Virus record (IMG/VR): IMGVR_UViG_3300032227_000318
Coordinates: 32,001 to 96,000 of that record
Direction: 5' to 3' (one strand)
DNA from: a virus
Lineage: Duplodnaviria > Caudoviricetes
DNA length: 64,000 nt
Shown here: piece by piece, positions 23,152 to 51,309 of the stretch
How the letters are laid out: each line of letters begins with the position of its first letter
Position numbering within the stretch: the first letter of the stretch is position 1
Program-made: the position numbers and the translations under genes
The notes under the pieces: model-generated
Databases searched by the model: none
Told to the model about the DNA's origin: nothing
Seen by the model: the letters and a program-made list of their open reading frames with translations, nothing else

Positions 23152-23727
23152 TTATTGATTGTGATTGTAGATTTTCTTCACATGCTCTATGAACACGGAT
23201 TCTTCTGTGCTGCTTTTCATATTGTTACATAGCCAACAACAGGAAACACAGTTATCTCTTGTGTAGCCTTTTGACGAATCAACTCTATCAATACCTGTGT
23301 ATCTAAAATCACCGCTAGTCTTACCTTGACCCTTTTTAGTCTGTGTAAGGCTATCTCCACAGTATTGACAGTTTCCGGTTACCAGTTGTGTGAACTCTTC
23401 GGTTGTGAGTTGATAGTCCAAGTTTCTTCTCTTTGCACTTGTTTTGTAAGTGTGTTCTAGATTGTTTCTGGCCGCTTTGCCGCTTGCGAGTTGCCAAGGT
23501 TTAGTCTTAGGACCTGATGACTTCCAAGTTTCAGGTTTTCTCTGTTGACAACCACAACTATTCATCTTCCTTATGAGATTGCCGTTCATCATTACAGTTT
23601 CATTGTTGCAGTAGTGGCAGAGGCATCTAAGACTTACATGTTGACCCGGTTTGTTGTTTGAAATGATTTCCAGAACCTCAAGTTTGCCATGGAAGTCACC
23701 AACGTTATGTGAACTCTTTCTACCCAT
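23152..23727 (-). CDS. HNH homing endonuclease (likely start 23727)
   Basis: CQYCG, GIDRVDSSKGY..NCVSCC..CN.MK; late promoter 23759-23766. Confidence 0.85.
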   Translation of the reverse strand: MGRKSSHNVGDFHGKLEVLEIISNNKPGQHVSLRCLCHYCNNETVMMNGNLIRKMNSCGCQQRKPETWKSSGPKTKPWQLASGKAARNNLEHTYKTSAKRRNLDYQLTTEEFTQLVTGNCQYCGDSLTQTKKGQGKTSGDFRYTGIDRVDSSKGYTRDNCVSCCWLCNNMKSSTEESVFIEHVKKIYNHNQ

Positions 23728-23761
23728 TCTAGAACTCCTTATAGTGTATCCTAGAATGTAT

Positions 23762-24448
23762 TTATATAATCCACTCTTCTGAGGTACCACCTAAGGCCGC
23801 TGCAACAGAGGGAAACTGCTCACAAATGATTTTCTTACATTCAATAGCGATAAGTTTGTGTTCCTTCTGGGTACCATTTTTCTCACGGAGAGCAATGTAG
23901 GTAATCCAGCTGCGGAGACTTCCTGACATATACATGCGTGACATAGTAAGTCCTTCAGGAAGAACAGAACGAGCAACTTCCTTGGCGATGCCATTTGCAA
24001 TAGCCCATTCATAGTTTTCTTGTGCATGTTCGATCAGTGCTTTTTGCATATCATGCCATGTGTCAGTTATACCCGTTTCATCATTGAAAATCTCAATGCT
24101 GTTCTGACGATTCTTATCGTCTTGCCAACGTGCTTCGCGCGGCACAGACATCTCCTGTACAGCAGCATATCTTTGACTAAACTCTTGAAACGAGAACGAG
24201 CGATGGCGCAGGATCTGCCTTGCAATATCTCGGGTCGTTTCAATCTCCATAACGACATGCACCATCTCAAACGGCGACCAGTGCTTGTTCTTCACAAGAT
24301 ACTTGAGAAGACGTTCGCTGTCTGGATTGTCCTGATTAGCAGGGTTTGACACTCGCGCACAGTATGCGATCAACTGCTCTGCACTGCACGGAGTAAACGC
24401 TTCAATACTTATCGGCTGTGTAATCCCAACTAACTTCACATTGCTCAT
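23762..24448 (-). CDS. thyX: Flavin-dependent thymidylate synthase
   Basis: ARVSNP, HWSPFE, QILRHRSFSFQEFSQRY, KEVAR. Confidence 0.95.
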   Translation of the reverse strand: MSNVKLVGITQPISIEAFTPCSAEQLIAYCARVSNPANQDNPDSERLLKYLVKNKHWSPFEMVHVVMEIETTRDIARQILRHRSFSFQEFSQRYAAVQEMSVPREARWQDDKNRQNSIEIFNDETGITDTWHDMQKALIEHAQENYEWAIANGIAKEVARSVLPEGLTMSRMYMSGSLRSWITYIALREKNGTQKEHKLIAIECKKIICEQFPSVAAALGGTSEEWII

Positions 24449-43007: not shown

Positions 43008-43099
43008 TGGCGGAAGGTAAGGGATTTGAACCCTTGGTACCTCTTGCGAAGTACGACGGTTTAGCAAACCGCTGCTTTCGACCGCTCAGCCAACCTTCC
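43008..43099 (-). tRNA. tRNA-Ser(GCT)
   Basis: Cloverleaf, long variable arm, CCA. Confidence 0.95.
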
Positions 43100-43100
43100 T

Positions 43101-43550
43101 TTATTCTGTAATCTCTATGTATGTATTATACTTGCCATACTCATTTACGATGTGATACAACCAACGTGCATTCTGAGGGCTAAGACGAACACAACCGTGT
43201 GATGCAGGCCGACCAAGCTTCTTTACTTCTGTTGTTGCGTGAATTGCATAACCGCCGTGAAAGAAGATAGAGTGCGGCATCGGTGCATTGTCATACTTAG
43301 ATGAATAGTGCATCTTCTTTACAAGATATGGTTGATACACACCAATCGGTGTACGATATCCCTTGCGTCCAGTAGAAACATCCCACTCATAATAATCTGT
43401 AGGAGTCTCTACATACATTTTCTGGTCGGACTTATCAACGCGAATGATCACTTCATGCTCACCAAGAGGTTCAACGCCAGCTTTAACACCTGTAGCCAGC
43501 ATAAAGATTGCCGCGGCCATCACAGCCAACATAACAAAAAACTTAGTCAT
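43101..43550 (-). CDS. L,D-transpeptidase (YkuD family)
   Basis: Signal peptide, VSTG..TP.G, AIH...ASHGCVRL. Confidence 0.9.
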   Translation of the reverse strand: MTKFFVMLAVMAAAIFMLATGVKAGVEPLGEHEVIIRVDKSDQKMYVETPTDYYEWDVSTGRKGYRTPIGVYQPYLVKKMHYSSKYDNAPMPHSIFFHGGYAIHATTEVKKLGRPASHGCVRLSPQNARWLYHIVNEYGKYNTYIEITE

Positions 43551-44048
43551 TTATTCTACCTTCGTTTGCGGTAAATGTTGAATAGCGTCTTTGTAACGGT
43601 CAGCACAGTAAGATGCTGCCCACGCATTTGGCTTCACTAGCGGCACAATGTTACACATACCACGAATGTAGCCAACAGCTTCATTTATAACACAGCTTGA
43701 ACCATGCTTCATGTCTGGATTAATGTCAAGATGGATTTCAGTTTCACGATCTTCTAGAACGTCATAAAGATCCATGTATAGTTGAGCCGTCTTCATCACT
43801 TCATTCATCAGACGCATACGAGGCTTATCTTTCTGCTGATCATAGTCACGTTCACGGACAATGCCACCAAATACCTTACAACCGTTCTTGCCGTTCTTAT
43901 GAACAACGACAACGTTGATGTAGTCGGCATGCCAAACACCATCAATCTGAAAACGTTCAGAGTCGCCACCTAGATATATCTTTGTTTCGGGAGTTTGTTC
44001 TTGAATGAACGCACGAACTTCGTCCAGGTTCATGTTCTTTCTGATCAT
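43551..44048 (-). CDS. RNase H-like YkuK family protein
   Basis: IYLGGDS, RLMNEV, EIHLDIN, KPNAWAASYCAD. Confidence 0.8.
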   Translation of the reverse strand: MIRKNMNLDEVRAFIQEQTPETKIYLGGDSERFQIDGVWHADYINVVVVHKNGKNGCKVFGGIVRERDYDQQKDKPRMRLMNEVMKTAQLYMDLYDVLEDRETEIHLDINPDMKHGSSCVINEAVGYIRGMCNIVPLVKPNAWAASYCADRYKDAIQHLPQTKVE

Positions 44049-44059
44049 TGTTAAGTTCC

Positions 44060-44443
44060 TTAAAAGACCTTCTTTGCTATCGATGAATAACTTTTTGGAT
44101 GAACTCCATCAGCACTAGCGAACGAAGATAAGTATACAACACCATCGCCATGTTGTCTAGCGATATTTAGAGCAATCTTTCTTGCTTTTGCGTTGTTATT
44201 GGAAAGAATCCAAATAACTTTACCAGATATTTTGTTTCTGAGGATATTAAGGTATTTGGAAAAATCTGCATTACCATCATTTGATCCGAGAGATATGACA
44301 GTAGTTTTTGAGGAAGGAATATATTTGTAAGAAACTACAAAGTTTTTGCTGTTTATGCCGACCTTTGCTATAGTCTTACACTGCGGAGTAACAGAACCAA
44401 CGCCAACAGCAATACTGTCGCCCAATATTAAACAATCAATCAT
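44060..44443 (-). CDS. SGNH/GDSL-like hydrolase
   Basis: GDSIA, SLGSND, DGVHP. Confidence 0.75.
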   Translation of the reverse strand: MIDCLILGDSIAVGVGSVTPQCKTIAKVGINSKNFVVSYKYIPSSKTTVISLGSNDGNADFSKYLNILRNKISGKVIWILSNNNAKARKIALNIARQHGDGVVYLSSFASADGVHPKSYSSIAKKVF

Positions 44444-44457
44444 TGTTAAGTTCCTAT
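44441..44457. repeat. 17-bp inverted-repeat partner of 49733-49749; 15-nt direct copy at 44046-44060
   Basis: CATTGTTAAGTTCCTAT vs ATAGGAACTTAACAATG. Confidence 0.9.
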
Positions 44458-44459
44458 AA

Positions 44460-44533
44460 TGGTGCCTCTATCCAGAATCGAACTGGAGCCAATCCCCTAC
44501 CAAAGGATTGTTCTACCACTATACTATAGAGGC
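44460..44533 (-). tRNA. tRNA-Thr(GGT)
   Basis: Cloverleaf, CCA. Confidence 0.93.
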
Positions 44534-44539
44534 AGTGAT

Positions 44540-44616
44540 TGGTGCGCCTGGAGAGACTCGAACTCCCAACATCCGGTTTCTAAGACCGGCGCCTCTACCA
44601 ATTGGACTACAAGCGC
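44540..44616 (-). tRNA. tRNA-Leu(TAG), short variable loop
   Basis: CCGGT-CTTAGAA-ACCGG, CCA. Confidence 0.9.
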
Positions 44617-44621
44617 GTTAA

Positions 44622-44697
44622 TGGTGCGAGATGAGAGGGTCGAACTCCCGACATCCTGCGTGTAAAACAGGCGCTACTACCACTGAGCTAATCTCGC
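44622..44697 (-). tRNA. tRNA-Val(TAC)
   Basis: Cloverleaf, CCA. Confidence 0.93.
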
Positions 44698-44704
44698 GTT
44701 AATT

Positions 44705-44778
44705 TGGAGCGGGTAGCGGGAATCGAACCCGCGCACTCTCCTTGGCAAGGAGAAAGGCTACCATTACATCATACCAGC
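44705..44778 (-). tRNA. tRNA-Gly(GCC)
   Basis: Cloverleaf, U73, CCA. Confidence 0.93.
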
Positions 44779-44796
44779 TTACTCTATATTTATAAT

Positions 44797-44872
44797 TGGT
44801 GCGTCATGGTAGAATCGAACTACCTTTTCCGGCTTATGAGACCAGCGGGATGTCCATCACCCCCCAAGACGC
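44797..44872 (-). tRNA. tRNA with CAT anticodon (Met or Ile2), atypical D arm
   Basis: CTGGT-CTCATAA-GCCGG, T arm, CCA. Confidence 0.8.
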
Positions 44873-44996
44873 ATTTACTTATGATTCTTGCCAAACCAAG
44901 ATATTTCTTTTATTCTTGGTCCCATTGCTATCGCAGAAGCAAGACATGCTTTATATATGGCGTCATATAGTTCTTTGCTCATGTTTATTTCCTAAA

Positions 44997-45074
44997 TGGT
45001 GCAAGGTCTTGGAATCGAACCAAGTTCTTCCGCTCTTCAGGCGGACGCTGAATTACCAAACTAGCTCACCTTGC
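44997..45074 (-). tRNA. tRNA-Phe(GAA), 5' end overlapped by endonuclease ORF
   Basis: TCCGC-CTGAAGA-GCGGA, CCA. Confidence 0.92.
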
Positions 45075-45688
45075 ATTATTCTATTATACTCGTTTTTCTC
45101 AATAATTACAATCTTTTTTTCTGGGTGCTGTTTCAGAACTGCTTCCATCTTTCTCTTATCATCGCCCCACCAGTAACCTTTTATCTCAAGGAATATATCT
45201 TGATCTATCAATTGTAGATCAGGCGTGTACGATTTTTTCTTGCCGTCCAATTCATATTCCCAAACATCTCTATGAACAGCAGGTTTATACCAATCAATTC
45301 CTAACTCATCAAGTTTCTTGGCTATGTTTAGTTCCCAAGTGCCTTGTAGTTTCTGTCCTTTATATTCAAACCATTTACATTTACCGCCACGATTCTTTAC
45401 ACTCTGTTCAACAGACAATCTTTTACGAGCTTCTTCCCCCATTCTTGTCGGAACAAATGAACCATTAGCTATCTTAGCCTGTATTGTCTGGCTGTTTTTC
45501 TCAGCAGTTCTTCGTATTTCTTCAGAAGTTTCTTTAGTCAGCCCTTTTCTGTGGCTAGGACGACCTTTAGATTTGCTTCCTGTTTTTTGTCCGTGAGCAA
45601 CGCCGTCTTTTGAATGCGATCTCCAAACATGAGCAACCTTAGCTTTATCGCTCTTTAGTTCTTTGTTACATATTGGGCAATAGATCAT
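45053..45688 (-). CDS. PD-(D/E)XK (TnsA-like) homing endonuclease with N-terminal zinc finger
   Basis: CPIC..H...H; QGTWE, YTPD...LEIKGYW; TATAAATA at 45705-45712. Confidence 0.8.
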   Translation of the reverse strand: MIYCPICNKELKSDKAKVAHVWRSHSKDGVAHGQKTGSKSKGRPSHRKGLTKETSEEIRRTAEKNSQTIQAKIANGSFVPTRMGEEARKRLSVEQSVKNRGGKCKWFEYKGQKLQGTWELNIAKKLDELGIDWYKPAVHRDVWEYELDGKKKSYTPDLQLIDQDIFLEIKGYWWGDDKRKMEAVLKQHPEKKIVIIEKNEYNRIMQGELVW

Positions 45689-45715
45689 AGTTCCTCCTAT
45701 GATCTATTTATATAA

Positions 45716-45750
45716 CAGGCGTATGTACGCACCAGCTATACCAAGGCAGC
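45716..45750 (-). pseudogene. 5'-half tRNA remnant truncated in the anticodon loop
   Basis: GCTGCCT-TG-GTAT-AGCTGGTGC-GTAC-A-TACGC-CTG then late promoter. Confidence 0.75.
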
Positions 45751-45756
45751 AGTTAT

Positions 45757-45903
45757 TCAATCACGAAGCAACTGAGGAGCTGATTCCGTCAAGTTCTTCT
45801 TTTCGTATTCTGCAAGTTTAATAGAGTATTGTTCGTTTGTCAACCCATGCCAACCGATACACTTACCAGTCGGACTTCTTCCACAACCACAATCTTTAGA
45901 CAT
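45757..45903 (-). CDS. CDGSH-like Fe-S microprotein (48 aa, not in ORF track)
   Basis: CGCGRSPTGKCIGWH 3Cys-1His pattern; GAGG RBS. Confidence 0.7.
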   Translation of the reverse strand: MSKDCGCGRSPTGKCIGWHGLTNEQYSIKLAEYEKKNLTESAPQLLRD

Positions 45904-45923
45904 TTATAACCTCATTCGTTAAA

Positions 45924-46011
45924 TGGCGGAAGGTGTAGGATTCGAACCCACGGAACCTTTCGGTTCTTCGCATTTCAAGTGCGATGCAATAGACCACTCT
46001 ACCAACCTTCC
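45924..46011 (-). tRNA. tRNA-Ser(TGA)
   Basis: Cloverleaf, long variable arm, CCA. Confidence 0.95.
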
Positions 46012-46019
46012 AATTTCGA

Positions 46020-46137
46020 TGCGATTTCTTAAAGTGGTTACGCCCTCCACTATTGTGATAAACGAGAGTTTCCAGTCAAGTACAGTCCACTCACAAACCT
46101 CTAGCTGCGGGATGACGGAACGCAGTACTTGCCGCCA
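46020..46137 (-). ncRNA. Candidate structured ncRNA
   Basis: After TTGACA-17-TAATAT promoter; stems CAAGTAC/GTACTTG, CTGCG/CGCAG, AGTGG/CCACT. Confidence 0.45.
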
Positions 46138-46176
46138 TGATGTATATATTACACTAAATCCCGCATATTGTCAAGT

Positions 46177-46536
46177 CTACCTTTTCTTCTTCCCTAAGAT
46201 TTCAACCTTGACTGTGCAAATTCCACCGCAACCAATCTTTCTAGCTGCTGCTCTTGATAGGTCTAAATGTCTGCCTCTAATGAATGGGCCCCTATCATTT
46301 ATTACTACTATTACTGATCTTCCTTTGTGTGTAACCCTAAGTCTTGTGCCAAAGGGTAGTGTCTTATGTGCTGCTGTTAAAGCATTTGGATTGAATCTTT
46401 GCCCGCTTGCAGTGATTTTATTTCTACTACATTCACCAGGCTTAGCGCAATCGTACCATGATGCTTTCATAGTAGACGCATAACTGGGCGCTGCAATTAA
46501 AAATAATGCAGCTAAGGTTGTTACTAATAGTTTCAT
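46177..46536 (-). CDS. RlpA-like double-psi beta-barrel protein
   Basis: ASWY, TASG, TAAHKTLPFGT, INDRGPF, DLSRAAA. Confidence 0.9.
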   Translation of the reverse strand: MKLLVTTLAALFLIAAPSYASTMKASWYDCAKPGECSRNKITASGQRFNPNALTAAHKTLPFGTRLRVTHKGRSVIVVINDRGPFIRGRHLDLSRAAARKIGCGGICTVKVEILGKKKR

Positions 46537-46552
46537 TATAGTTTTCCTTTAG

Positions 46553-46646
46553 TGGAGCATCTGACAGGATTCGAACCTGCATCGGATATTTCTATCCACG
46601 TCCAGTTACCTTACTCTCCGTTCGTAGCGGAGGGGGCTACAGATGC
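46553..46646 (-). tRNA. Rearranged tRNA-Arg(ACG)-like RNA
   Basis: Acceptor GCATCTG/CAGATGC, CTCCG-CTACGAA-CGGAG, T arm, CCA; no canonical D arm. Confidence 0.75.
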
Positions 46647-46652
46647 ATAGTT

Positions 46653-46727
46653 TGGAGGGGCTAACCAGATTTGAACTGATACCTCAAGGATTTGCAATCC
46701 CGTGCATTACCGTTTTGCTATAGCCCC
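46653..46727 (-). tRNA. tRNA-Cys(GCA)
   Basis: Cloverleaf, CCA. Confidence 0.93.
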
Positions 46728-46731
46728 GTAT

Positions 46732-46805
46732 TGGCTGCTCATCATGGATTCGAACCACAATACCCTGAGTCAGAGTCAGGAGTCCTACCGTTAGACGAAT
46801 GAGCA
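46732..46805 (-). tRNA. tRNA-Gln(CTG)
   Basis: Cloverleaf, CCA. Confidence 0.93.
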
Positions 46806-46810
46806 ACAAA

Positions 46811-46884
46811 TGGTACTGCCTAGTGGAATCGAACCACCGTATTGCGTTCCACAGACGCACGTTCTACCATTGAACTAAGACAGC
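46811..46884 (-). tRNA. tRNA-His(GTG), no G-1
   Basis: Cloverleaf, G1.U72, A73, CCA. Confidence 0.93.
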
Positions 46885-46889
46885 ATGAT

Positions 46890-46966
46890 TGGTTGCGGGT
46901 GTGAGTGCTGCCCTCACTATCTCCGGCTTATGAGACCGGCGGCTTATCTACCTTGCCCTACCCACT
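46890..46966 (-). tRNA. Initiator-like tRNA-Met(CAT), atypical T loop
   Basis: 1:72 mismatch, CCCGCAACCA end, T loop GGCAGCA. Confidence 0.75.
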
Positions 46967-47009
46967 TTATTTCTTATAGATTCTGAAATCTTTTTCTTTG
47001 TTAATGAAT

Positions 47010-47084
47010 TGGTAGAGCATACGGGAGTCGAACCCGTCTCTCATCCTTGAAAGGGATGTGACCTAACCGATAGTCGAATGCTCC
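47010..47084 (-). tRNA. tRNA-Glu(TTC)
   Basis: Cloverleaf, CCA. Confidence 0.93.
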
Positions 47085-47085
47085 A

Positions 47086-47160
47086 TGGAGAACCCTCTGG
47101 GATTCGAACCCAGGACAGACGGATTAAAAGCCCGCTACTCTACCACTGAGTTAAGGGTTC
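47086..47160 (-). tRNA. tRNA-Lys(TTT)
   Basis: Cloverleaf, CCA. Confidence 0.93.
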
Positions 47161-47165
47161 ATTGT

Positions 47166-47239
47166 TGGCTGGGAGACTAGGATTCGAACCTAGATAGCAG
47201 GAATCAAAATCCTGCGTCCTACCTTTAGACGATCTCCCA
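47166..47239 (-). tRNA. tRNA-Gln(TTG)
   Basis: Cloverleaf, CCA. Confidence 0.93.
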
Positions 47240-47245
47240 ATGAAA

Positions 47246-47319
47246 TGGTAGTTCCTACTGGTTTCGATCCAGTGATGCGCGGTTATCGGCCGCGAGTTTT
47301 ACCATTAAACTAAGGAACC
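47246..47319 (-). tRNA. tRNA-Ile(GAT), 5' end overlapped by HNH ORF
   Basis: CGCGG-CCGATAA-CCGCG, CCA. Confidence 0.9.
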
Positions 47320-47787
47320 ATATTTCTTTTTTCTATCTCTGCCTCGCCATGTGGTAGTTTGACTGTGGCAGTTTGGACAAAGACATTCTAAATTTTCTCT
47401 ATTGTTATTAGTTCTAATGCCGTCTTTGTGTTCAAGTTCAAGTGTTAATGGCTGATCTAACCATCGGTCATTACCACATCTATTACACTTGAAATTCTGT
47501 TCTTCTAAGACTTTTAGACGAATGGCCGCTCTGCTTTTGAAATCCGTGGTATCTCTATTCTTTCTTAGAATAGCATAATGCTCACTGAAAGCTACATTCG
47601 GCCCTATTTTCACACCTTTGTTCCAAGCAGTTCTCTCGCCTGTCTTAAAGGCGTGATTAGGATCAAAGTCAATACCCCTAATCTTTTTCTTTATAGGTCC
47701 GATACAAGCATCCACATGTCTATCAAAGTTATTTACGGTGATGTTTCTATCACATTTATCACAGTGTTTAGTTGGCTTTTTACTCAT
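47305..47787 (-). CDS. HNH homing endonuclease
   Basis: CNRCG, LELEHKDG...NN..ENLECLCPNCHSQT; ACTAAATA at 47811-47818. Confidence 0.88.
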   Translation of the reverse strand: MSKKPTKHCDKCDRNITVNNFDRHVDACIGPIKKKIRGIDFDPNHAFKTGERTAWNKGVKIGPNVAFSEHYAILRKNRDTTDFKSRAAIRLKVLEEQNFKCNRCGNDRWLDQPLTLELEHKDGIRTNNNRENLECLCPNCHSQTTTWRGRDRKKKYGSLV

Positions 47788-47820
47788 AGTTGTCTCCATA
47801 GTAGCACATCTATTTAGTAA

Positions 47821-47852
47821 AAGCGCCTACTCTACCATTGAGCTACAAGCCA
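47821..47852 (-). pseudogene. 5'-half tRNA remnant (Ile-like) truncated at the anticodon
   Basis: TGGCTTG-TA-GCTC-AATGGTA-GAGT-A-GGCGC-TT then late promoter. Confidence 0.8.
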
Positions 47853-47859
47853 ATATATT

Positions 47860-47975
47860 CCGTACACCTTGCAGGTTTAGCCCTTTCGCGAACTGAGTCA
47901 GCAATCCTGCATTCGTAAGCTTTCCCTCATGTTGGGCTTACTAGGTCTCCCCTGTCTTATCTAGAAAGACGGGTA
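47860..47975 (-). ncRNA. Candidate structured ncRNA
   Basis: Stems GTCTT/AAGAC, GTAAGC/GCTTAC, TGCAGG/CCTGCA, ACCT/AGGT. Confidence 0.45.
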
Positions 47976-47978
47976 ATT

Positions 47979-48064
47979 TGGTGGGTGAGAAAGGATTCGA
48001 ACCTTCTAAGTCATAGACAACGGATTTACAGTCCGCCACAACACGCCGTCGTTGCCGCTCACCC
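47979..48064 (-). tRNA. tRNA-Tyr(GTA)
   Basis: Cloverleaf, long variable arm, CCA. Confidence 0.93.
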
Positions 48065-48073
48065 GAACAAGTA

Positions 48074-48250
48074 TTATTCTTTTTCTGGCCACTGAACTAT
48101 TAAGTTTGGGTCAGTAACCTTTACATCATTAATACGAATGCCACCCTGTTCAATCAATCGTCTAGCTGCACTCTTGCTTTTTGCAAATCCAGCAGCAATA
48201 ACTATGTCGACTAACGAAACAGTTCTTGGTACAGTTATTTCAGGTAACAT
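48074..48250 (-). CDS. Stand-alone S4 RNA-binding domain resembling the TyrRS C-terminus (58 aa, not in ORF track)
   Basis: SLVDIVIAAGFAKSKSAARRLIEQGGIRINDVKVTD; AGGAG RBS. Confidence 0.8.
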   Translation of the reverse strand: MLPEITVPRTVSLVDIVIAAGFAKSKSAARRLIEQGGIRINDVKVTDPNLIVQWPEKE

Positions 48251-48341
48251 TGTATTCTCCTAAAAAGCGCCAACCTCACAGTTATTCGGCTGGCTGTTTG
48301 ACATTCATGACGCGCATCACTGCTACGTAGTCAGATCAAAT

Positions 48342-48424
48342 TGGTGCCAAGGGAGGGAATCGAACCCCCGATGTTTGTATGCCTCCTTACAAGAGAGGTG
48401 CTGTCGCCGCTGAGCCACCTTGGC
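48342..48424 (-). tRNA. tRNA-Thr(TGT), extended variable loop
   Basis: CCTCT-CTTGTAA-GGAGG, CCA; G1 is the last base of the HNH stop codon. Confidence 0.88.
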
Positions 48425-48840
48425 TAATAACTTTTACCTTCAGCATATCGCTGTCTTCTATAGTGTCTGCCATTACCTTTATTTGCGCCTTTGTAAGTTG
48501 GCGTTTGTGAATGGCAGTTTGGACAAATCAAACATAGATTTTCTATGTTGTTATTCTCACTGTTGCCGTCTTTATGTTCTAAATCAAATACGATTGATTT
48601 ATTGTTCCATTCAGTTATACCACAAGTATAGCATTTGTTGCCGTATGTGTCAATGATATATTTTTTTATCTGTCTTTTACCAGGAACAACACCCTCTTCA
48701 AGCCAATTTTTTATCTTGTCTTTACGAGTATATTCATGTTGACACTTTTGTGAACAATATTTACCAGTAGATGAATATACATTTCTTACTGTGTGTTCTT
48801 TATTACAATTTTGACAGACTATGATTCCTGATTTACCCAT
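48424..48840 (-). CDS. HNH homing endonuclease
   Basis: KYCSQKCQ, CYTCG, DLEHKDGN..NN..NLCLICPNCHSQT; TATAAATA at 48867-48874. Confidence 0.88.
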   Translation of the reverse strand: MGKSGIIVCQNCNKEHTVRNVYSSTGKYCSQKCQHEYTRKDKIKNWLEEGVVPGKRQIKKYIIDTYGNKCYTCGITEWNNKSIVFDLEHKDGNSENNNIENLCLICPNCHSQTPTYKGANKGNGRHYRRQRYAEGKSY

Positions 48841-48900
48841 GTTATACCTCTATGTTTTGGTATAACTATTTATAATACACAAATGTTCTACCATTTGGAT

Positions 48901-48975
48901 TGGTGGAGGATAACGGAATCGAACCGTTTTCTCTGCCGTGCAAAGGCAGCGTTTCCCCAATAGCACTGATCCCCC
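48901..48975 (-). tRNA. tRNA-Ala(TGC)
   Basis: Cloverleaf, G3.U70, CCA. Confidence 0.9.
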
Positions 48976-48980
48976 GTTAT

Positions 48981-49094
48981 TTACATGCACAAATCTTCAT
49001 AAAGGACAGTATGTTTCCTGTGTGTGGCAAGATCACCATCACGATCATCATTGTACCACAGCGTGGTAAAAAAGTCAACTATAATATCAAACAT
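48981..49094 (-). CDS. Micropeptide (37 aa)
   Basis: MFDIIVDFFTTLWYNDDRDGDLATHRKHTVLYEDLCM; AAGGA RBS; internal TTGACT-17-TACAAT promoter. Confidence 0.5.
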   Translation of the reverse strand: MFDIIVDFFTTLWYNDDRDGDLATHRKHTVLYEDLCM

Positions 49095-49111
49095 TCTATT
49101 TCCTTTTGTAT

Positions 49112-49185
49112 TGGCACCAGTGCAAGGATTCGAACCCTGACAAGCAGTTTTGGAGGCTGCCGTGCTACCGTTACACTACACTGAT
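49112..49185 (-). tRNA. tRNA-Trp(CCA)
   Basis: Cloverleaf, CCA. Confidence 0.92.
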
Positions 49186-49191
49186 ATGAAT

Positions 49192-49268
49192 TGGTCGGAG
49201 TGGTAGGATTCGAACCCACGACCCTTCGCTCCCAAAGCGAATGCTCTACCAGACTGAGCCACACTCCG
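49192..49268 (-). tRNA. tRNA-Pro(TGG)
   Basis: Cloverleaf, CCA. Confidence 0.95.
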
Positions 49269-49274
49269 TTATAC

Positions 49275-49348
49275 TGGCGACCTATGCGAGACTCAAACTC
49301 GCTACACCTCTTAGACAGAGAGGTGTGATATCCATTCACTAATAGGCC
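49275..49348 (-). tRNA. tRNA-Asp(GTC)
   Basis: Cloverleaf, CCA. Confidence 0.92.
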
Positions 49349-49354
49349 TTGAAT

Positions 49355-49429
49355 TGGAGAACCAGGTGAGAATTGAACTCACGACACGCGGGTTAAGAGG
49401 TCGCTACTCTACCACTGAGTTACTGGTCC
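49355..49429 (-). tRNA. tRNA-Lys(CTT)
   Basis: Cloverleaf with two anticodon-stem mismatches, CCA. Confidence 0.88.
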
Positions 49430-49435
49430 TTGAAT

Positions 49436-49511
49436 TGGCTGGATAGCTTGGATTCGAACCAAGGACATCCTCGTTAACAGCGAGGCGCTCTACCGCTGGA
49501 GCTACTATCCA
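49436..49511 (-). tRNA. tRNA-Asn(GTT)
   Basis: Cloverleaf, CCA. Confidence 0.93.
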
Positions 49512-49513
49512 AT

Positions 49514-49655
49514 ATTCTACTTTCGTCAGTAGTCACATCATCATATGAGATTCGAACTCATGCCTGCGCCGCTTCTGCGGCACCGTGCTTCCCCTACACC
49601 AATGAATGACTTGTCGCGGTGGCCACCTGCTAGTGACTACTGACGAAAGTAGAAT
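49514..49655 (-). ncRNA. Anticodon-less tRNA-like domain inside a 23-bp perfect stem
   Basis: IR 49514-49536/49633-49655; D arm, 7-bp arm with AGAA loop, T arm ATGAG-TTCGAAT-CTCAT. Confidence 0.7.
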
Positions 49656-49801
49656 GTGAGGCTGTGCTGAGTCACAGACACTCACTGGATATTTCGCTAC
49701 TCAGTGCGCCTTTGAGAAGAGCAAAGGTACTCATAGGAACTTAACAATGTCAATCAGCGACCGCGTCTATCTTGCCCGCGCGGCTGGGAAACTCTCTCTT
49801 A

Positions 49802-49837
49802 CATACTGGATATAGTGTCTCAAGGTGCTGGTTTCAA
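49802..49837 (-). promoter_or_regulatory. Repeated early promoter driving the tRNA array
   Basis: TTGAAA-N17-TATATCCAGTATG. Confidence 0.75.
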
Positions 49838-49889
49838 GTCTTTTCTTATTCTTTTTTCGTATATCTGCTATGCACTAGACACAACCCTG

Positions 49890-49928
49890 AAAATGAAAGA
49901 ACCCCGAAACTTTCGCTCCGGGGTTCTA
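49890..49928 (-). terminator. Intrinsic terminator (attenuator)
   Basis: AGAACCCCG/CGGGGTTCT stem then TTCATTTT. Confidence 0.85.
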
Positions 49929-49950
49929 AGAAACTAAGTCTATCTAAGAC

Positions 49951-50031
49951 TTAATACATAGAACCCCCTACACCTGCCCATGATGGCTGGCGTGTCTCTT
50001 GATTAATCGTGAAGGGGCAATAACGTTTCAT
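49951..50031 (-). CDS. Putative attenuator leader peptide MKRYCPFTINQETRQPSWAGVGGSMY
   Basis: 22 distinct codons in a row; contains antiterminator GGGGGTTCTA (49959-49968). Confidence 0.75.
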   Translation of the reverse strand: MKRYCPFTINQETRQPSWAGVGGSMY

Positions 50032-50055
50032 TTCCGTCTTTCTTAAACTGTACTC

Positions 50056-50096
50056 TATTTAGTATACATCCTAGCAGGATTTTATTAGGTTGTCAA
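50056..50096 (-). promoter_or_regulatory. Tandem sigma70-type and late promoters of the leader
   Basis: TTGACA-17-TAGGAT and ACTAAATA. Confidence 0.7.
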
Positions 50097-50105
50097 CTTT
50101 TTTTT

Positions 50106-50182
50106 TGGTGCGAAAGGTGGGACTTGAACCCACAGAACTCGGTTTTTGAGACCGATACGTATACCTATTCCGTCACTCTCGC
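50106..50182 (-). tRNA. tRNA-Leu(CAA), short variable loop
   Basis: TCGGT-CTCAAAA-ACCGA, CCA. Confidence 0.9.
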
Positions 50183-50186
50183 TTAT

Positions 50187-50278
50187 TGGTCGGCGTGCTT
50201 GGATTCGAACCAAGTCAAGAACACTCATCTAGTGCTAAAGGGATTATAAGGCCCTCCCGTGTACCAACACCCACGCCG
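50187..50278 (-). tRNA. Atypical tRNA with TAT anticodon (Ile-AUA reader?)
   Basis: CGGCGTG/CACGCCG acceptor, CTTATAA loop, minimal D loop, long variable arm, CCA. Confidence 0.75.
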
Positions 50279-50282
50279 TTAT

Positions 50283-50732
50283 TTACATTACAGAAAAGAA
50301 TCCAAGTGTGGCATCATTATATTTCTTGTCTCTTTTTCTATCCCAACCACGCTTTGCTCTTTCACTTCTGTCTTGTGATGTAAGTTTTGCTGCTGACGCT
50401 TTACCACCAATTGAGCCAAACTTATCTTTCACTTTATCATAACCTTTTCTGGCATTCTCTTTGGTAAAGCCACCAATGCCACCTTTTCTCATATTATATG
50501 TCTTATTAGTGTTAAAGTCAACAGTTAGTTCGGCTTCTAGCTTGTATGCTTCATCTTTCGATTCAGTGATGAATAAGACTTCTTTTTTGAAGTTGTCTTT
50601 TCCATATTTTCTTAATGCTTCTTCAATAGCACGACCTGAACCAAAATATACATCACTTGGATTGTTTGTTTTATGAACACCAATATAGTGTTTATTGTTG
50701 ATTAGATTTATTGTTTTATATACAGTATACAT
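50283..50732 (-). CDS. GIY-YIG (Seg-like) homing endonuclease
   Basis: YTVYKTIN...YIGVH, YFGSG, YGKDNFKKEVL, YN...GG; TATAAATA at 50754-50761. Confidence 0.85.
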   Translation of the reverse strand: MYTVYKTINLINNKHYIGVHKTNNPSDVYFGSGRAIEEALRKYGKDNFKKEVLFITESKDEAYKLEAELTVDFNTNKTYNMRKGGIGGFTKENARKGYDKVKDKFGSIGGKASAAKLTSQDRSERAKRGWDRKRDKKYNDATLGFFSVM

Positions 50733-50767
50733 CCATTATCTCCTCAGTGGATGTATTTATAGTAAAA

Positions 50768-50843
50768 TGGTGCGACCACCAGGACTCGAACCCGGAACCA
50801 GACAGGTATGAACTGTCAGCTCTAACCGTTGAGCTATAGTCGC
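50768..50843 (-). tRNA. tRNA with CAT anticodon (Met or Ile2)
   Basis: GACAG-TTCATAC-CTGTC, CCA. Confidence 0.88.
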
Positions 50844-50847
50844 TTAT

Positions 50848-50934
50848 TGGTGCGGGCGGTGGGACTCGAACCCACAACGTTTCTATTGTAGCAAATTTTA
50901 AGTCTGCCGCGGCTCACCATTACGCCACGCCCGC
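50848..50934 (-). tRNA. tRNA-Leu(TAA)
   Basis: Cloverleaf, long variable arm, CCA. Confidence 0.93.
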
Positions 50935-50942
50935 TTTATTGT

Positions 50943-51209
50943 TTAGTCCTTCATTGCGCCGGACATGAAGCCCTTGCGAGGATCACCCCACTCAGTCTCA
51001 GCACGAACACGAACATATCGCGCGCGAGTGTCGGCCGTATTAGGATTAGGCACAGTGACCCACGGGTTCTTACCCTTCAACCAGGCTTTCTGCAAGAGTG
51101 TCCACTTATCAATAGCGGAACGTTCACGCTTGATAGCCTTTGACAGGCTGCGATTTGCTTCACGCTCACCCTTAGAGGTGTAAGCAGACTTAGACTTCGG
51201 TGCAGACAT
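50943..51209 (-). CDS. Hypothetical basic protein
   Basis: TSKGER, AWLKGKNPWVTVPNPN. Confidence 0.65.
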   Translation of the reverse strand: MSAPKSKSAYTSKGEREANRSLSKAIKRERSAIDKWTLLQKAWLKGKNPWVTVPNPNTADTRARYVRVRAETEWGDPRKGFMSGAMKD

Positions 51210-51233
51210 TCACTTTCTCCATTATACTATAAT

Positions 51234-51309
51234 TGGCGACCCCTGCACGACTCGAACGTGCGACACCCTGTTTAGAAGACAGGTACTCTATCCACTGAGC
51301 TAAGGGGCC
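51234..51309 (-). tRNA. tRNA-Arg(TCT)
   Basis: Cloverleaf, CCA. Confidence 0.93.

Follow-up and report, generated by a model that had tools for sequence, protein, structure and literature searches.

SegB of phage T4, a homing endonuclease encoded in a tRNA cluster, targets tRNA genes and has its message cut at the adjoining tRNA (PMC2330249); cutting of the segB message by tRNA 5' processing next to tRNA-Arg has been proposed for T4 (PMC2330249). Endonuclease genes of T4 typically have late promoters and hairpins at the start site (PMC2988022), and HNH endonucleases, F-TflI/II/IV, lie in the tRNA region of T5 (Akulenko et al. 2004, as cited in PMC2330249 and PMC10644984). In fungal mitochondria, endonuclease open reading frames (ORFs) bring with them a replacement end for the gene concerned, as described for atp6 of Allomyces macrogynus and for atp6, atp9, cox2 and nad3 of Glomus (PMC3630166). 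No phage intron had been found in a tRNA gene, according to one review (PMC3984707). The common view is that a homing endonuclease depends on an intron, an intein or an intergenic landing site if the host gene is to survive. Here we describe a cassette in which such an element appears to land inside an RNA gene and to pay for this with a spare copy. The cassette lies in a 64,000-base stretch of viral DNA (hereafter the window), which is bases 32001-96000 of a 110,481-base IMG/VR viral contig (IMGVR_UViG_3300032227_000318) with an estimated completeness of ~67%.

We consider it likely that the cassette is a free-standing HNH homing endonuclease that has invaded a tRNA-Ile gene and carries a cleavage-resistant spare. 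We favor this reading because the nuclease gene is present or absent at one and the same site, an intact target exists elsewhere, the insertion lies inside that target, flanks appear to be co-transferred and the catalytic core is intact. The mobile unit would begin with a leader that holds a late-promoter-like box, continue with the HNH gene and end in a complete tRNA-Ile(GAT), fused to the 3' end of that gene. It would have entered the resident tRNA-Ile(GAT) at the anticodon loop, replacing bases 33-70 and leaving the 5' half as a dead stub. The parts of the locus, in window coordinates, are listed below; L007 is a related viral contig that also carries the cassette, L005, L008 and L009 are related contigs with the intact resident gene, and X5 is a public sequencing run.

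47821..47852, minus strand: the stub, bases 1-32 of the resident tRNA-Ile(GAT), with 32/32 identity to the intact genes in six related contigs
47811..47818, minus strand: ACTAAATA box, a candidate T4-type late promoter, conserved in L007
47794..47797, minus strand: Shine-Dalgarno GGAG, 6 bases 5' of the conserved ATG, identified by reading the sequence and conserved in L007
47305..47787, minus strand: HNH homing-endonuclease gene, 160 amino acids (aa), phrog_10822, beginning at the conserved ATG
47305..47319, minus strand: 15-base overlap of the HNH ORF and the new tRNA, the last four codons and the stop being the first 15 tRNA bases
47246..47319, minus strand: replacement tRNA-Ile(GAT), called by ARAGORN and by the Rfam tRNA model (56.6 bits, cut-off 29), with the cloverleaf as minimum-energy fold
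47250..47820, minus strand: inserted segment of 571 bases (leader, HNH gene and bases 1-70 of the new tRNA), delimited by the X5 empty-site contig
47166..47239, minus strand: tRNA-Gln(ttg), the right flank common to empty-site genomes, 74/74 identical to L005, L008 and L009

The stub comprises the acceptor 5' strand, the D arm, the 5' strand of the anticodon stem and loop positions 32-33. An earlier reading of the letters alone (the sequence-only reading) had described an Ile-like 5' half ending just before the anticodon, and this description is borne out: 47852..47821 on the minus strand is bases 1-32 of the intact tRNA-Ile(GAT) of relatives, and the remnant, whose failure to align with the Ile tRNAs of relatives would have refuted that reading, aligns perfectly in six contigs (32/32, E 3.7e-14), the identity ending at the base that precedes the anticodon. 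The exact 32-mer is present in seven other viral contigs. Six of them (L003, L004, L005, L006, L008 and L009) have it as bases 1-32 of an intact 74-base tRNA-Ile(GAT), which is syntenic among them, after Tyr/Thr/Ala and before Gln(ttg). These six genomes with an intact resident tRNA have no HNH gene, while the window and L007 carry the cassette, a presence/absence polymorphism at one locus.

The 3' half of the resident gene was not found anywhere in the 110-kb contig, from which one third of the genome is missing. The leader, considered as a decayed form of this 3' half, shows no significant similarity to it (local alignment p = 0.22), and this candidate was discarded. Because the identity ends sharply, the contig holds no resident 3' half, the leader is unlike that half and there is no intron or ribozyme family match at E up to 1, we read the stub as a recombination junction and not as a decayed gene, a split gene or an intron. 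The break does lie where bacterial group I introns interrupt tRNA genes, as expected if the gene were split or intron-containing, with its halves joined at the RNA level or the nuclease housed in a self-splicing intron. This explanation is nevertheless hardly credible, and we rejected it for want of a ribozyme match and of a 3' half in the contig. In addition, no pairing is possible between the stub and the 3' acceptor strand of the downstream tRNA, the distance from stub to start codon is just 33 bases, and the ORF extends into the tRNA that follows.

The empty and filled forms of the site are both found in public data. We compared the contigs of four public runs, taken as assembled contigs, over 46600..48400; those parts of the stretch that runs X2, X4 and X5 leave uncovered carry no weight. 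A contig of X5, a lake metagenome from another study, joins 47249 to 47821 via 38 letters that, reverse-complemented, give bases 33-70 of the resident tRNA, so that the 571 bases of 47250..47820 stand in place of 38. In this X5 genome the resident tRNA is intact, and the 7-base spacer and tRNA-Gln that come after it are those of the window; the contig covers 47165..47249. The right junction falls within the terminal ACCA, the only part common to both tRNAs.

The filled form is not tied to one set of neighbors. Run X2, from a different study (2018), has a contig in which the 614 bases of 47239..47852 recur with 3 differences (99.5% identical) and in which both flanks differ from those of the window, the upstream break falling at the first base of the stub. 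The cassette is also found in run X4. In the window, the upstream flank matches L003 (114/119) and the downstream tRNA-Gln matches L005, L008 and L009 (74/74), which places the cassette at a mosaic boundary. L007 shares the same stub and junction, with an HNH gene 82.5% identical in DNA and 86-88% identical in protein; its upstream flank is L008-like (97/110), unlike that of the window, and its downstream tRNA-Gln differs. The cassette is thus a discrete module that occurs in several flanking backgrounds.

The perfect stub is itself informative. It is 32/32 in both the window and L007 despite HNH genes that are 82.5% identical in DNA, and a neutral 32-mer would remain unchanged at 17.5% divergence with a probability of 0.825^32, or ~0.002. 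This suggests that either the stub is under selection, or there was more than one round of entry into, or conversion against, pristine targets.

The nuclease is well defined. The sequence-only reading had proposed an HNH ORF behind a promoter, with last codons and stop that are the first 15 nt of a divergent tRNA-Ile(GAT). The ORF is confirmed by its PHROG match (phrog_10822, E 4.8e-27) and by its HNH and zinc core residues, and the overlap by the ORF end at 47305 and the ARAGORN call at 47246..47319 on the minus strand; as for the promoter, the box is there and is conserved in L007, and its frequency is considered below. The ORF listing starts at 47799 (47799..47305, minus strand), and the second ATG, at 47787, is the conserved start, since L007 lacks the first ATG and keeps the second together with GGAG. 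Pfam HNH_3 matches at E 2e-4, below its cut-off. The protein has an N-terminal C2HC zinc finger, which resembles the Sgf11 type, and a C-terminal HNH core; in an alignment with 12-13 relatives the invariant C101, C104, H120, D122, N127, N132, C137, C140 and H141 are all intact. Since all invariant HNH and zinc residues are present, the nuclease looks active. No GIY-YIG catalytic domain was found in the cassette nuclease, the protein being HNH, and among solved structures searched by sequence only the small zinc finger resembles anything (E 0.17).

The source is an uncultured freshwater phage, and it is T4-like, because the DNA polymerase of the window is ~50% identical to polymerases of T4-like cyanomyophages and because NATAAATA/CTAAATA-form boxes lie 4-36 bases 5' of 24 ORF starts in this genome. 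Parts of the stretch also occur in public runs, most of which come from lake metagenomes. A T5-like identity, raised by the polymerase family match, was rejected, as the polymerase is nearest to T4-like cyanophages. Near and distant DNA searches of cultured phages returned no relative of the locus beyond single tRNAs. For the ACTAAATA box, a late-promoter role is plausible in a T4-like phage, the argument being its likeness to the NATAAATA boxes; no sigma-70-type promoter was found before the HNH gene. The cassette is part of an array of 28 tRNA genes on the minus strand (43008..51309, ARAGORN). Elsewhere in this array, where relatives carry tRNA-Met(cat), 46885-47009 on the minus strand is a tRNA-like stretch without an ARAGORN or Rfam call; its anticodon arm, with CAT, matches over bases 25-45 (46922..46942), and its T arm is aberrant.

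The replacement tRNA is the only tRNA-Ile(GAT) in the contig, and it differs from the resident in the acceptor stem, D arm, anticodon stem and T arm. It carries C at positions 32 and 33 and A at 54. The spares of the window and L007 are alike only in the anticodon arm, with C at 32 and 33 in both, and at least three tRNA-Ile alleles are known at the locus. The odd positions (C32, C33 and A54) may lower function or may reflect escape from nucleases.

Such escape could be the whole explanation, with the anticodon and T loops of the new tRNA evading host tRNA nucleases and the nuclease gene serving only as the vehicle. The common odd anticodon arm of two spares that differ elsewhere and the multiplicity of alleles would fit this account. 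Phage tRNAs with altered anticodon loops that evade tRNA-targeting defences have also been described (cited in PMC10644984), and T4 SegB recognises a T-loop motif of tRNA genes (PMC2330249). We nonetheless regard defence evasion as a long shot. No tRNA-Ile-specific defence was identified here, the spares of two related cassettes (L013 and L015, below) have ordinary loops, and the stub and the position of the junction are left unexplained.

We further note several other tRNA-like forms at this locus. The spare tRNA-Ile(GAT) of L007 (4724-4809, minus strand) has 86 bases and a long extra arm, unlike any normal tRNA-Ile. A third tRNA-Ile(GAT) allele, with a non-standard T loop and no nuclease gene, occurs in L026 (5045-5119), L029, L030, L035 and L038; its upstream flank is as in L005 and L009, and after it comes a spacer of 435 bases, with a small membrane-like protein encoded on the opposite strand. 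In L005, L008 and L009, the 80 bases after tRNA-Ile (for example L009 7356-7436, minus strand) are tRNA-like and uncalled by ARAGORN, with an acceptor stem, a T arm, a CCA end and an over-long anticodon loop. A tRNA-like element of this kind also follows the spare tRNA of L007, and the window genome is without it.

The HNH family shows a similar association with tRNA genes elsewhere. Sixteen IMG/VR loci encode relatives of the HNH protein, nearly all of them within tRNA arrays, and the stop codon lies inside the next tRNA in L010 (overlap of 22 bases), L013 (18), L015 (10), L018 (18) and L016 (10). In four separate clades (window/L010, L013/L015, L014 and L023/L024) the next tRNA downstream is Ile(GAT), a linkage that, with ~25 tRNAs per array, is far above chance. 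No recognisable stub was found 5' of the HNH relatives in L014, L023 and the Salmonella phage Kenya-K16, nor in the related cassette of L013.

L015 is of particular interest, as its HNH protein is only 39-40% identical to that of the window and has a tRNA-like piece upstream. The first 23-25 bases of this piece are the start of an intact tRNA-Ile(GAT) in 63 other contigs, the first 23 being present in 64 contigs in all. The L015 stub follows the intact genes to about position 31 and then passes into the cassette leader, and the end of the ORF shares 10 bases with the spare, which is a different tRNA-Ile(GAT). We take L015 to be an independent recurrence of the break in the anticodon loop of tRNA-Ile(GAT).

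A third junction comes from a sister cassette in the window itself.

44997-45750, minus strand: sister Phe cassette, consisting of a stub, TATAAATA, a hairpin, an ORF and a divergent tRNA-Phe

Its stub (45750..45716) is bases 1-35 of tRNA-Phe, 100% identical to L003 and L009; behind it come TATAAATA, a hairpin of 12 pairs in which the start codon lies, and an ORF at 45688..45053. The encoded protein of 211 aa is endonuclease-I-like with an N-terminal zinc finger, and the end of the ORF overlaps a different tRNA-Phe. The break falls at position 34/35 and the nuclease is unrelated to the HNH protein. The sequence-only reading had held that the Ile cassette repeats the architecture of another cassette with an unrelated nuclease, and we find each of these parts at the Phe locus: the stub, the endonuclease-I-like ORF and the overlapped replacement tRNA. 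The three junctions (Ile and Phe here, Ile in L015) all fall at tRNA positions 31-35, which supports, at the level of sequence, the anticodon-targeted homing with tRNA replacement that the sequence-only reading suggested as a general strategy.

These junctions bear on whether the locus is only a passive scar, in which one illegitimate event joined a foreign HNH and tRNA-Ile block to the resident gene, homologous recombination later spread it, and the HNH protein cuts elsewhere or is inactive. T4-like phages recombine freely, the window is visibly mosaic around the cassette, and HNH relatives adjoin tRNAs without a stub in L013, L014, L023 and Kenya-K16, all of which such a history would accommodate. 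It would not readily account for three independent junctions in the anticodon loop, where chance for the two of the window alone is ~(3/75)^2, nor for a stub that is perfect despite 17.5% divergence of the adjoining gene. The intact catalytic core and the linkage of HNH clades to tRNA-Ile(GAT) in four lineages also speak against it, and we judge a passive scar to be distinctly improbable.

The homing reading, by comparison, suggests the following course of events. In a mixed infection, the nuclease would cut or nick the resident-type tRNA-Ile gene of a cassette-free phage near the anticodon, and repair would then copy the cassette from the donor, biasing its inheritance. The insertion interrupts the old target site, and on either side of the junction the spare has a sequence unlike that of the resident. 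Because of these differences on both sides, the spare should not be a target, and the donor would be immune. The cassette's own tRNA would supply isoleucine tRNA, compensating for the killed resident gene, and the fused stop codon would tie nuclease and spare together. Expression probably follows the T4 pattern, by analogy: transcription would be late, and an RNase P cut at the tRNA 5' end would remove the stop codon from the nuclease message and keep enzyme levels low.

Several observations weigh against this reading. A single insertion, followed by ordinary recombination between phages that infect one cell, could have produced the modular spread. The L015 spare has an anticodon arm identical to that of the intact targets, so immunity there does not come from the anticodon arm alone, and recognition must, if the scheme holds, reach into the D arm. 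The bare 8-mer of ACTAAATA is not enriched (5 seen against 3.2 expected), and neither is the 9-mer. The spare of the window carries C33 and A54 where nearly all tRNAs carry U and T, and may work poorly for that reason. Finally, a pairing of the stub with the start site, described next for the window, is not the minimum-energy fold in L007 (z = +0.27).

In the window, acceptor and D-arm bases of the stub pair with the start codon and codons 2-5 (z = -2.4; 3/200 shuffles fold as well). The stub could therefore have been kept as a functional part, either as a strand that hides the start codon in read-through transcripts or as a half-site through which the nuclease represses its own late promoter, an addition to the homing model and not a replacement for it. 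Autorepression of this kind, through a homing-site-like operator over a late promoter, is documented for I-TevI (PMC2988022), and two diverged cassettes show no stub substitutions. The pairing fails in L007, as given above, and weakens with longer flanks (z = -1.3); repeated homing into intact targets explains the perfect conservation equally well, and the related cassette of L013 has no recognisable stub. On balance we think a retained function of the stub unlikely.

Other nuclease genes of this genome show related arrangements. One further gene of the HNH family (138 aa, 48840..48424, minus strand) ends on the first base of an 83-base tRNA-Thr(tgt), and its locus (48342-48905, minus strand) has TATAAATA and an 8-pair hairpin that holds the ribosome site ahead of the gene. 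A stub of tRNA-Thr was sought in the 60 bases before it (48841..48900), with no BLAST match. A GIY-YIG homing-endonuclease gene (149 aa, 50732..50283, minus strand) lies between tRNA-Met and a 92-base tRNA that ARAGORN calls Ile(tat) and for which the best Rfam match is only tRNA-Sec (27.9 bits); this gene (locus 50187-50770, minus strand) has TATAAATA ahead of it, with a 9-pair hairpin that covers the start codon. Outside the tRNA array, an HNH/endonuclease-VII-like ORF (23715..23152; locus 23152-23790, minus strand) also stands behind TATAAATA.

Perfect TATAAATA boxes number seven in 110 kb, all on the coding strand, and four of the seven are just 5' of nuclease genes (23766, 45712, 48874 and 50761). 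Behind three of these four comes a hairpin that encloses the ribosome site or the start codon. The Ile cassette has a variant box in place of TATAAATA, and the phage's other genes have the looser NATAAATA boxes.

Two further arrangements occur in related contigs. In L009 (8511-8894, minus strand), and also in L005, L026 and L029, an endonuclease-VII-type ORF of 106 aa shares 15 bases with a tRNA-Pro(tgg), and another tRNA-Pro(tgg) of different sequence comes immediately downstream of that tRNA; this cassette landed beside the resident gene and not inside it. A mirror-image case is seen at and around 5234-5291 of L009 (minus strand), where an intact tRNA-Ser(tga) comes first, then a 186-aa ORF, by eye not a nuclease, and last a copy of tRNA-Ser bases 31-88 (95% identical).

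If cleavage takes place as proposed, the cassette would be a natural and very compact (~0.6 kb) cleave-and-rescue module and would contribute a set of nucleases with tRNA-gene sequences as their recognition sites. Mosaic phage tRNA clusters, the presence of several alleles per locus and tRNAs with unusual conserved positions would then also be explained. For annotation, tRNA stubs beside nuclease genes are to be read as footprints of such events and not as sequencing errors or split genes. We offer a wider extension only tentatively, and with more doubt than belief. Phage tRNA arrays may host a class of drives that cut and carry a spare, with nucleases of unrelated folds each reading the anticodon-loop DNA of one isoacceptor, intron-free entry, a resistant spare and a stub that acts as operator or translational lid; the resulting arms race would be a main force behind odd phage tRNAs (C33, A54) and multiple alleles per locus.

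No description of a stub, a nuclease and a spare tRNA together was found in the literature searched, and comparison with known systems shows which parts have precedents. T4 SegB is likewise a selfish nuclease gene in a T4-type tRNA array, with the tRNA genes of nuclease-free relatives as its targets (PMC2330249, PMC2988022, PMC13096335). Its reading frame abuts a tRNA and its message is cut by tRNA processing, where the cassette has a 15-base overlap, and it has a late promoter, start-site control and co-inherited neighboring tRNA genes. It differs in being a GIY-YIG enzyme that sits between intact tRNA genes and recognises a T-loop motif, whereas the cassette encodes an HNH protein; no tRNA is truncated by SegB, and descriptions of it mention no isoacceptor spare that would stand in for a destroyed gene.

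F-TflI/II/IV of T5 and their T5-like relatives belong to the same HNH family by sequence: in T5-like Salmonella phages, tblastn matches 77% of the protein at ~35% identity. One of these, the cultured phage Kenya-K16 (L104 1426-1962, OQ291030.1), has an annotated homing endonuclease of the family that overlaps tRNA-Leu(TAG) by 7 bases. The arrangement there differs in having no stub, only 16 bases between the preceding tRNA and the gene, a tRNA for Leu and a different phage family as host. Kenya-K16 could serve as a laboratory model of the nuclease-tRNA fusion.

The fungal mitochondrial ORFs are similar in their intron-free insertion into an essential gene, in bringing a foreign divergent copy and in leaving a native remnant unused. 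There, protein genes have their 3' end replaced in frame and the native remnant lies downstream, whereas the cassette supplies a whole RNA gene downstream and has the native 5' half upstream; we consider the likeness in layout to be one of analogy and not homology. Introns of the tRNA anticodon loop share the entry point, but there the gene is rescued by RNA splicing, and in the cassette by a spare gene without any ribozyme. Synthetic 'cleave and rescue' gene drives follow a like plan, in which the resident copy of an essential gene is destroyed and a recoded copy that resists cleavage is carried along. These are engineered, use a guided nuclease and operate in animals, whereas the cassette is natural, protein-guided and found in a phage. 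The cassette is thus a variant on known kinds, namely SegB of T4 in tRNA clusters and the replacement ORFs of fungal mitochondria.

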